Part shown: positions 11,392 through 12,207 of the stretch, piece by piece
Layout: the number at the start of each line of letters is the position of its first letter
Numbering within the stretch: the first letter of the stretch is position 1
Virus record (IMG/VR): IMGVR_UViG_2531839665_000007
Coordinates: 1-22,029 of that record
Reading direction: 5' to 3' (one strand)
DNA: 22,029 nt
From: a virus
Taxonomy: Duplodnaviria > Heunggongvirae > Uroviricota > Caudoviricetes
Program-made: the position numbers and the translations under genes
The notes under the pieces: model-generated
What the model was told of the DNA's origin: nothing
The model's database searches: none
Seen by the model: only the letters and a program-made list of their open reading frames with translations

Positions 11392-11402
11392 TGAATACTC
11401 CT

Positions 11403-11594
11403 TTATTTTTTATGCCTGTAACCCCATTCTTCCAGCAACCTTGCGGCGTACCACCCAAGAAACAAAGGAAAGAACATTACAATGAGATATTCCCCGCCAC
11501 GGTCAATGTTCGAAATTGACCAGATTACGATGTAACCAGTGTAGGACAGGAATATTACAAACCCCAAAAAGCTACTTCGTCGACTCATGCTCAC
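11403..11594 (-). CDS. Small membrane protein (hypothetical)
   Basis: 63-aa ORF with hydrophobic helices (FLGFVIFLSYTGYIVIW; LIVMFFPLFLGWYAARLL); stop overlaps the start of the upstream gene; absent from lambda at this position. Confidence 0.4.
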   Translation of the reverse strand: MSMSRRSSFLGFVIFLSYTGYIVIWSISNIDRGGEYLIVMFFPLFLGWYAARLLEEWGYRHKK

Positions 11595-11911
11595 TCCTTC
11601 ACTTTGATTCCAGCAGCGCGGATGTTTTCCTCATAAGCATCCATTGCATCACCGAAGCCATTGGAATAATCAACAGTAAACCCTTTGGCTAATGCTTCTC
11701 TGCTGTCGATAAACTTTGGCGCGGTTATTTCAATAGCTGATCGCGATGCCTGCCACGTTTGCCAGTGGCCTTGAACATCGTCCATCACGTATTGACCACC
11801 AATATTACCGCTGCCAATTTCATGGTGATTTTCAGGGTAACGGATAAGGTCTGAGGATTCGCCTCCACGTCGCAACCAACTTTCTTCAAACTTCTTTCTT
11901 AATTCGTCCAT
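11591..11911 (-). CDS. Hypothetical protein (106 aa)
   Basis: ORF MDELRKKFEESWLRRGGESSDLIRYPENHH...; tightly packed between two small membrane-protein ORFs; no motif recognised. Confidence 0.45.
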   Translation of the reverse strand: MDELRKKFEESWLRRGGESSDLIRYPENHHEIGSGNIGGQYVMDDVQGHWQTWQASRSAIEITAPKFIDSREALAKGFTVDYSNGFGDAMDAYEENIRAAGIKVKE

Positions 11912-11928
11912 CGATACTTACCCTCAGT

Positions 11929-12135
11929 TCAACTCACAAAACGCCACGCCATTTTTGCTACAGCGACAGGCGCAACACCGATAATCACCCACAGGAGAAT
12001 GCTACCGAAAATCACACCCGCCAGGTCTTTACCTTCGCCTACCAACCGGACAAAACTGCTGGCAACCACAATGAACGTCGCCACCATCCACATGGCACCG
12101 AGAATCCTCAATGCAGAAAAAATCAACTCAACCAC
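11929..12135 (-). CDS. Small membrane protein (hypothetical)
   Basis: 68-aa ORF, almost entirely hydrophobic (two predicted TM helices). Confidence 0.4.
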   Translation of the reverse strand: MVELIFSALRILGAMWMVATFIVVASSFVRLVGEGKDLAGVIFGSILLWVIIGVAPVAVAKMAWRFVS

Positions 12136-12207
12136 GATTTACTCTCCCCCAAATAAAAAGGCCTGCGATTACCAGCAGGCCTGTTATTAGCTCAGTGATG
12201 TAGATGG

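Follow-up and report, generated by a model that had tools for sequence, protein, structure and literature searches.

Three separately exchangeable genes probably form an ordinary mosaic nin stretch between tR2 and ninB in a lambda-like prophage of Escherichia coli

We analysed the interval between the ren and ninB genes in a 22,029-nt stretch of viral DNA (IMG/VR record IMGVR_UViG_2531839665_000007, positions 1 to 22,029; henceforth the window), which is a lambda-like Escherichia coli prophage with 99.9% identity to a prophage in E. coli 13E0767 and in several other isolates, mostly bovine. The minus strand of the window carries the rightward early (pR) operon in the order cII, O, P, ren, the terminator tR2, three small open reading frames (ORFs) that we refer to as ORF68, ORF106 and ORF61, ninB and ninE; beyond ninE lie an AT-rich gene in the opposite orientation and then the genes for an HNH endonuclease, NinG, a phosphatase and the late antiterminator. 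An earlier note, made from the sequence alone, had described the three ORFs as an insert in which two small membrane proteins flank a soluble protein, and had suggested a single exclusion, holin-like or toxin-antitoxin-like module. The features of the interval, in operon order, are:

12208-12498, minus strand: ren, the last gene of the block identical to lambda (phrog_142, Ren-like, E 5e-42; PGAP name "protein ren").
12149-12182, minus strand: rho-independent terminator tR2 (stem 12182-12159, T-tract 12158-12149; found by terminator scan, with 8 pairs, 6 of them G-C, followed by TTTTATTTGG).
12142-12150, minus strand: Shine-Dalgarno sequence GGGGGAGAG, common with lambda ninB, with a mosaic breakpoint directly 3' of it.
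11929-12135, minus strand: ORF68, a predicted 68-aa two-helix inner-membrane hairpin of the HK022 gp58 family (PHROG 1165; phrog_1165, E 1e-35).
11591-11911, minus strand: ORF106, a predicted acidic soluble protein, HK022 gp59-like and Sf6 gene 48-like (PF26207, Phage_phiTE_015; PHROG 343; phrog_343, E 8e-29).
11403-11588, minus strand: ORF61, an orphan small membrane protein with two predicted transmembrane (TM) helices (two hydrophobic segments), read from the likelier ATG of a 63-aa ORF.
10981-11391, minus strand: ninB of the HK620/HK75 type, the next operon gene (Pfam NinB, E 2e-53).

The three ORFs described earlier are all present (11929-12135, 68 aa; 11591-11911, 106 aa; and 11403-11594, 63 aa), and the description of their products holds as well: both the 68-aa and the 63-aa product contain two hydrophobic segments (Kyte-Doolittle 15-residue peaks of at least 2.0), and the 106-aa product is hydrophilic with a net charge of -6. 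The third gene most likely starts at ATG 11588, giving 61 aa, because this codon lies 5 nt after AAGGAG and because the database clusters begin there (four clusters, all from the same ATG, three of them 61 aa long and one 56 aa with the C-terminus cut short). Overlapping stop and start codons, which the earlier note had reported for the three genes, occur only with the mechanical GTG start of the 63-aa ORF (a GTGA overlap) and nowhere else; the likely intergenic gaps are 17 nt (ORF68-ORF106), 2 nt (ORF106-ORF61) and 11 nt (ORF61-ninB).

The ORF listing has dozens of overlapping ORFs of 30-65 aa on both strands of the window, and since ORFs of this size are common by chance, size alone is no evidence of coding. 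We found, however, that the sense frame is open in homologues at 41-70% amino-acid identity, that substitutions in these homologues fall on codon positions in the order 3 > 1 > 2, and that dN/dS is 0.26-0.35 for ORF68 (against distant copies), 0.20 for the 63-aa ORF and 0.39-0.71 for ORF106. A Shine-Dalgarno sequence precedes each of the three ORFs, ORF106 and ORF61 having ribosome-binding sites of their own. All three thus appear to be real genes, seemingly under purifying selection. ORF68 and ORF61 showed no relationship to each other. An antisense gene within ORF68 was considered and set aside: the codon-aligned antisense frame is stop-free in all homologues, which we attribute to a codon usage that lacks TTA, CTA and TCA codons, and no listed ORF of at least 30 aa lies there. 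We also rejected an equation of ORF68 with NinA, because ninA of HK620 and P22 is a 27-aa ORF overlapping tR2 and the HK620 homologue of ORF68 is a separate, unannotated ORF.

ORF68 has tblastn matches in 107 phage records, many Stx2a-converting phages among them, and megablast located it in 528 of the 5426 complete E. coli genomes. Many lambdoid and P22-like phages of E. coli and Salmonella have it as their first gene past tR2. Homologues at 41-54% identity have exactly 68 codons and 22 invariant residues, including residues of the N-terminal part, an invariant GKD loop and the tail PV..AK.AWR, and an AlphaFold2 model gives a hairpin with helices at 2-33 and 38-67 (pLDDT 88.9). The gene is under-called as 52-54 codons in the phiv205-1, HK630 and mEp235 records and unannotated in that of HK620. 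It had no Pfam, NCBIfam or PADLOC match, and its sole PHROG match is to a family of undefined function.

ORF61 is a narrowly distributed orphan, with copies in four phage records and in 195 of the 5426 complete RefSeq E. coli genomes (~3.6%). It matched nothing in PHROG, Pfam, NCBIfam or PADLOC, and an exhaustive HMMER search of 1.84 billion representative proteins yielded no credible distant homologue (five matches, to long or multi-stretch proteins, were judged spurious). One could therefore ask whether ORF61, and possibly ORF68, is a gene at all, or whether the DNA has been kept for some other reason or by recent spread. For ORF61, PGAP has no feature under any of the 12 matches listed out of the 195 genomes, and nearly all copies are 93-100% identical and so carry little information on selection; for ORF68, there are the records that annotate just 52-54 codons. 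We nevertheless regard this explanation as very unlikely. The single diverged copy of ORF61 (P0124; 70% amino-acid and 74% nucleotide identity) keeps the frame with a dN/dS of 0.20, codon-position differences of 17/9/22 and both hydrophobic segments largely unchanged, and the start has an optimal AAGGAG-N5-ATG site. ORF68, in turn, keeps its exact length and its invariant residues down to 41% identity, and an Rfam scan of the whole window placed no family in the ren-ninB interval.

We then compared the interval with the corresponding region of lambda. Window positions 12578-12142 are 99.3% identical to lambda 40200-40636, a segment that runs from P through ren and tR2, and the tR2 sequence is identical to that of lambda. 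As the earlier note had stated, lambda has only a short spacer without these ORFs, namely 73 nt between ren and ninB. The identity stops at window position 12142, inside the ninB Shine-Dalgarno sequence: past GGGGGAGAG, lambda goes on with GGAAGTCATG (ninB) and the window with TAAATCGTG (ORF68), so that the same ribosome-binding site serves ninB in lambda and ORF68 in the window. The downstream gene differs too, ninB of the window being 96-97% identical in nucleotide sequence to ninB of HK630 and HK620 with no blastn match to lambda ninB. Because lambda identity ends at 12142 and ninB is of another type, the earlier picture of three genes inserted into a lambda-type junction does not hold, and all sequence after 12142 is, on this alignment, a different nin module and not a simple insert into a lambda backbone. 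The two regions are nonetheless alike in their operon logic and tight packing, which agree with descriptions of lambda and P22, and in the near-identical P, ren, tR2 and ninB Shine-Dalgarno sequence; they differ in that lambda passes from tR2 directly to ninB, whereas the window has three extra genes and another ninB allele.

The junction at tR2 is widely shared. HK620 and mEp235 records annotate the same element as tR2 or as a terminator, and the exact tR2 stem is present in 73 of 80 related loci. The arrangement of tR2, Shine-Dalgarno sequence and start codon also precedes the ORF68 homologues of eight phages, among them HK022, HK630, HK620, mEp213, 720R6 and Salmonella P22-like phages, with GTG as the start codon in E. 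coli copies and ATG in Salmonella copies.

A mosaic map, obtained by blastn against 17 related loci, divided the interval into four blocks of different affinity, with two short sequences at their borders:

12212-11918, minus strand: block 1, tR2 and ORF68, widely shared.
11892-11727, minus strand: block 2, N-terminal half of ORF106, HK022/phiv205-1 type, 95% match.
11755-11593, minus strand: block 3, C-terminal half of ORF106, mEp235/720R6 type, 97% match.
11623-10900, minus strand: block 4, last ten ORF106 codons with ORF61, ninB and ninE, phiv205-1/Gally type.
11727-11755, minus strand: putative recombination joint inside ORF106, where blocks 2 and 3 have 29 nt in common, coding for the conserved motif WQTWQASR.AIE.
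11590-11624, minus strand: 35-nt conserved linker (blastn map), the 3' end of PF26207 genes (..IRAAGIKVKE and stop codon) together with the AAGGAG Shine-Dalgarno sequence of ORF61.

As judged from this map, ORF106 is itself a recombinant. The whole gene was covered in only 51 of the 265 E. coli genomes with a match, the rest matching one half. The linker is 94-97% identical in HK022, in Salmonella phage 103203_sal5 and in a second PF26207 paralogue, though the flanks differ, and its 3' part (AAAGTGAAGGAGTGAGC) persists even where a DUF7301 gene precedes ORF61. The module boundaries in these alignments lie in short conserved sequences, i.e., the tR2/Shine-Dalgarno region, the WQTWQASR motif and the 35-nt 3' end of PF26207 genes.

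We recorded which of the three genes occur together. Among 80 IMG/VR loci with an ORF68 homologue, 72 have a downstream ninB, and their content between ORF68 and ninB was as follows:

Neither a PF26207 gene nor ORF61: 32 of 72 loci (23 of them with 2-8 nt between ORF68 and the ninB start).
One PF26207 gene only: 35 of 72 loci.
A PF26207 gene and ORF61, i.e., the trio: 5 of 72 loci.

Conversely, the gene directly upstream of ORF61 was:

A PF26207 gene, in 16 length classes: 51 of 61 loci.
A DUF7301 gene: 9 of 61 loci.
Another gene: 1 of 61 loci.

Individual genomes show the same pattern. HK630 has ORF68 and then ninB, and mEp235 is without ORF61; a 70%-identical ORF61 homologue (L006) has a DnaB-type helicase gene immediately before it; and one genome retains ORF61 behind a PF26207 gene that is frameshifted. 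Because each gene occurs without the others in other phages, the three are not one dedicated system but, in the loci compared, assort independently. The comparison of ren-ninB junctions which the earlier note had proposed thus speaks against one module (32 of 72 ORF68 loci have neither partner, and ORF61 is without PF26207 in 10 of 61), and the idea of a single coupled unit fails further on the want of a predicted promoter and of any match to a defence, holin or toxin family.

These counts also bear on a toxin-antitoxin or abortive-infection system, in which ORF68 and/or ORF61 would be a membrane toxin restrained by the acidic ORF106 product. GhoT is a small membrane toxin with two TM helices, and ORF68 and ORF61 resemble such toxins in size and hydrophobicity; ORF61 starts 2 nt past the ORF106 stop, and it has a PF26207 gene upstream in 51 of 61 loci. 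Yet 32 of 72 loci have ORF68 and neither other gene before ninB, which in 23 of them follows after just 2-8 nt, and ORF61 lacks a PF26207 partner in 10 of 61 loci and in L006, so that the candidate toxins and antitoxin are no obligate pair. The partner, moreover, comes in 16 length classes and is frameshifted in one genome while ORF61 stays, PF26207 genes without ORF61 are common (35 of 72 loci) and occur in virulent phages too, and a promoter for constitutive expression is not predicted. We consider this system highly improbable.

Taken together, we consider it probable that the interval is an ordinary mosaic stretch of a lambdoid nin region, with three separately exchangeable accessory genes between tR2 and ninB in the pR delayed-early operon; this grading covers the anatomy and evolution of the interval, and its function is graded separately below. 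According to passages in PMC5630979 (citing Juhala et al. 2000) and PMC8022706, nin regions are non-essential and tightly packed and draw on a pool of 30-50 genes, of which each phage carries about ten. The three genes share the features of this pool: they lie in the early operon between the replication genes and tR2 on one side and Q on the other, on the operon strand, they are tightly packed (gaps of 17, 2 and 11 nt), and they have a patchy, mosaic distribution with sharp boundaries at gene ends. Their presence or absence among the viable phages HK630, mEp235 and lambda suggests that they may be dispensable for plaque formation. The earlier note had named, as the case that would speak against its proposal, conserved backbone genes of a known nin region with a defined function; the ORFs are indeed recurrent members of the nin pool (HK022 gp58/gp59, Sf6 gene 48-like), but no defined function comes with them.

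Several observations weigh against this interpretation. In 51 of 61 loci the gene next upstream of ORF61 belongs to PF26207, and this adjacency could reflect a functional pairing with the conserved C-terminal module and not just the shared linker. The trio is also the commonest context of ORF61 (40 of 61 loci). Its recurrence beside four different replication modules, on the other hand, counts in favour of the mosaic interpretation, linkage through shared recombination joints being the simplest explanation. In addition, the promoter scan described below covers sigma-70 consensus sites only, and a weak or activator-dependent promoter could be missed; and the topology of ORF68 and ORF61 is drawn from hydropathy and charge only.

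The signals around the three genes bear on their expression. A consensus scan of 10700-12700 on both strands returned no sigma-70 promoter (2.4 expected by chance), and the only terminator-like site in that range is tR2, directly upstream of the ORFs. In lambda, N modifies RNA polymerase and thereby brings about read-through of tR2. The window encodes an N-like antiterminator on the other strand:

17266-17724, plus strand: N-like antiterminator (phrog_271, anti-termination protein N-like, E 2e-48).

A lambda-type boxB (GCCCTGAARAAGGGC, up to 1 mismatch) is absent from the whole window, so the nut specificity differs from that of lambda, though P, ren and tR2 are lambda-identical. From the upstream terminator, the lack of a predicted promoter and established lambda biology, we infer that the ORFs are silent in the repressed prophage. 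They would be off in the lysogen and transcribed only after induction or infection, on the N-antiterminated delayed-early pR message, the N-like antiterminator letting RNA polymerase past tR2.

Expression of this kind would not suit a superinfection-exclusion or anti-phage defence module expressed from the prophage, in which small membrane proteins block incoming DNA with the help of a soluble partner. Such a role is suggested by the presence of two small inner-membrane proteins in a prophage early region and by the recurrence of the trio with different replication modules, and exclusion factors are known to include small membrane proteins of phages (T4 Imm, P22 SieA and HK97 gp15 block DNA entry). 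The genes, however, directly follow tR2 without a predicted promoter and should be off in the lysogen; none of the three proteins had a PADLOC match at E up to 1; and the three assort independently. They also show no features of a moron: there is no predicted promoter of their own, no downstream terminator and no deviant G+C, the interval lying at 0.43-0.51 in line with the flanking backbone, unlike the G+C island of a nearby 590-aa ORF. We therefore judge exclusion unlikely.

A further possibility is that the membrane proteins adjust the timing of lysis from within the early operon, as holins, antiholins or pinholin-like proteins. In their length (61-68 aa), their two TM helices and their probable N-in/C-in topology, they resemble class II holins such as S21, and the two-helix hairpin and similar size recall small two-TM phage proteins more widely (S21, T4 Imm); they differ from both in genomic location and expression class and match neither sequence family. 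For holins specifically, we found no Pfam holin family at E up to 1 and no holin PHROG, and the prophage has a full lysis cassette (class II holin, lysozyme and lysis protein) ~8 kb away in the late operon, at ~2517-3663. Every homologue found is located after tR2 and none within a lysis cassette, and early holin expression would be harmful. A holin function thus has only the slimmest chance. Exclusion, toxin-antitoxin and holin readings are all disfavoured because each fails at least one defining feature, be it co-occurrence, promoter, family match or location.

PF26207, named from an uncharacterised Pectobacterium phage protein, is assigned (precomputed) to all 120 ORF106 homologues listed, at 51-96% identity, and its assignment to ORF106 rests on these and on phrog_343, as the Pfam set that we scanned is without the PF26207 model. 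In that set, NCBIfam and PADLOC, ORF106 had no match. An alignment of the family has conserved residues R5, F8, E9, W53, S56, R57, E61 and K105; in this highly mosaic family, variable inserts lie between motifs that are conserved at the N-terminus, in the centre and at the C-terminus. An AlphaFold2 model of ORF106 gives a small alpha/beta fold (pLDDT 72, residues 25-40 disordered) with no fold match among PDB structures, and its structure matches in BFVD are all uncharacterised phage proteins. The homology and structure searches proposed in the earlier note have thus delivered families (PHROG 1165 for ORF68, PHROG 343/PF26207 for ORF106) and neither a function nor, for ORF106, a PDB fold. Virulent phages of Salmonella, Klebsiella, Yersinia, Hafnia and Pseudomonas also encode relatives, a distribution that points to a role of PF26207 in lytic growth. 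A literature search returned nothing on PF26207 or on any of the three genes. Separately, 138-aa variants (P0017, P0047, P0049; L011-L015, 2501-2917) have an extra N-terminal CxxC...CxC segment (MSKCQKCNNTGMCDSGG...IECDC), possibly a zinc ribbon, which the 106-aa variant of the window lacks.

One distant likeness of PF26207 is to Ead/Ea22-like proteins (PF13935). Over its final 47 residues, the PF26207 profile can be aligned (hhalign probability 79%, E 1.6e-5) to the C-terminus (..IRATGIRIKG) of the Ead/Ea22-like protein of this prophage lineage, for which the copy at L005, a near-identical genome locus, was used, and a PF26207 homologue in one phage record is labelled "similar to P22 EaD". 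C-terminal regions of Ea22 are described as variable, acidic and dimeric (PMC10834534). By contrast, ORF106 had no match to the PF13935 HMM at E up to 1; PF13935 spans residues 2-109 of the Ead/Ea22-like protein, so the shared piece (88-134) lies mostly outside it; and no solved structure matched ORF106, in a set that would include the C-terminal domain of lambda Ea22. The genes also differ in place, Ead/Ea22-like genes sitting in the exo-xis region and ORF106 in the nin region.

What the three proteins do can be proposed only tentatively. ORF68 and ORF61 would insert in the inner membrane as helical hairpins with both termini inside (N-in/C-in), and the PF26207 protein would stay cytoplasmic. 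It is possible, if short of probable, that the hairpins act in lytic growth as non-essential modulators, binding inner-membrane proteins of the host, and that the PF26207 protein is a separate protein-binding factor acting through its conserved acidic C-terminal module. The hairpins might, for instance, protect transiently against secondary infection or a membrane-anchored factor of the host; we think that they are not pore-forming toxins or holins. A bolder version, which we hold doubtful, has ORF68 and ORF61 as delayed-early inner-membrane effectors with a defined host target, ORF61 perhaps cooperating with the PF26207 C-terminal module that precedes it in 84% of loci. If true, such effectors could, for example, impose a transient block to secondary infection or counter a membrane-anchored defence.

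The individual genes are not new. RefSeq and phage records already list near-identical proteins as hypothetical, the ORFs have been present in sequenced phages since HK022, and mosaicism is textbook lambdoid biology. ORFs of HK022 (gp58/gp59), mEp235, phiv205-1 and Sf6 (gene 48) have the same position after tR2 and before ninB, the same strand and the same order; ORF68 is 88% identical to HK022 gp58 and ORF106 71% identical to gp59, and the mEp235 and phiv205-1 proteins are 58-68% identical to ORF106 and annotated as similar to Sf6 gene 48. The window differs from HK022 and mEp235 in that its ORF106 joins an HK022-type N-terminal half to an mEp235-type C-terminal half, and from HK022 in that the latter has an 84-aa ORF in the place of ORF61. 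An 84-aa protein like HK022 gp60 was also seen in two related prophages (L016 and L017, 2245-2499), between a second PF26207 paralogue and ninB; these loci have two PF26207 genes in tandem, and the gp60-like protein just passes the Pfam model FlbD (flagellar/swarming; 25.5 bits against a cut-off of 24.7).

Other parts of the prophage also drew our attention. The 590-aa ORF mentioned above (8526-10298, plus strand) lies in the nin region, with ninE on one side and the HNH endonuclease/NinG genes on the other, on the strand that does not carry the pR operon and in an AT-rich island at ~8100-10700 (G+C ~0.33 vs ~0.48 in the flanks); its sole family is phrog_9230 (undefined function), Pfam, NCBIfam and PADLOC giving no match, and PGAP calls it hypothetical. 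It has the look of a moron gained by horizontal transfer and stands out more than the three-ORF interval does. A two-gene cassette (15639-16181 and 16169-16945, plus strand) lies directly after the cI-like repressor gene, at the position of lambda rexAB; its proteins fall in PHROGs 2017 and 1960 (undefined function), the second being annotated DUF1828, and match the candidate defence system PDC-M24 weakly in PADLOC (A, E 1.5e-3; B, E 6e-7). By these matches and its position, the cassette may be a lysogen-expressed defence pair. The Rfam family Lambda_thermo (cIII thermoregulator) matches 18614-18672 on the plus strand with 88.5 bits, a known element expected in a lambda-like pL operon. The paper on the svsR small RNA deals with the cI 3' end and not with the ren-ninB locus. 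Lastly, in E. coli C7 and C3 (bovine), the ren-ninE segment matches in three pieces over ~4.5 kb, and IS3-family transposase genes annotated within that span point to an IS insertion in the nin region of these strains.

For annotation, two points stand out: ORF61 has no annotated feature among the RefSeq E. coli matches listed despite good coding evidence, and ORF68 is under-called or missed in several reference phage records. For the evolution of the region, the locus illustrates cleanly how recombination joints can fall at a shared ribosome-binding site, within a conserved protein motif and at a 35-nt gene-end linker. And a function for ORF68, if found, would extend to hundreds of Stx-converting and P22-like phages.

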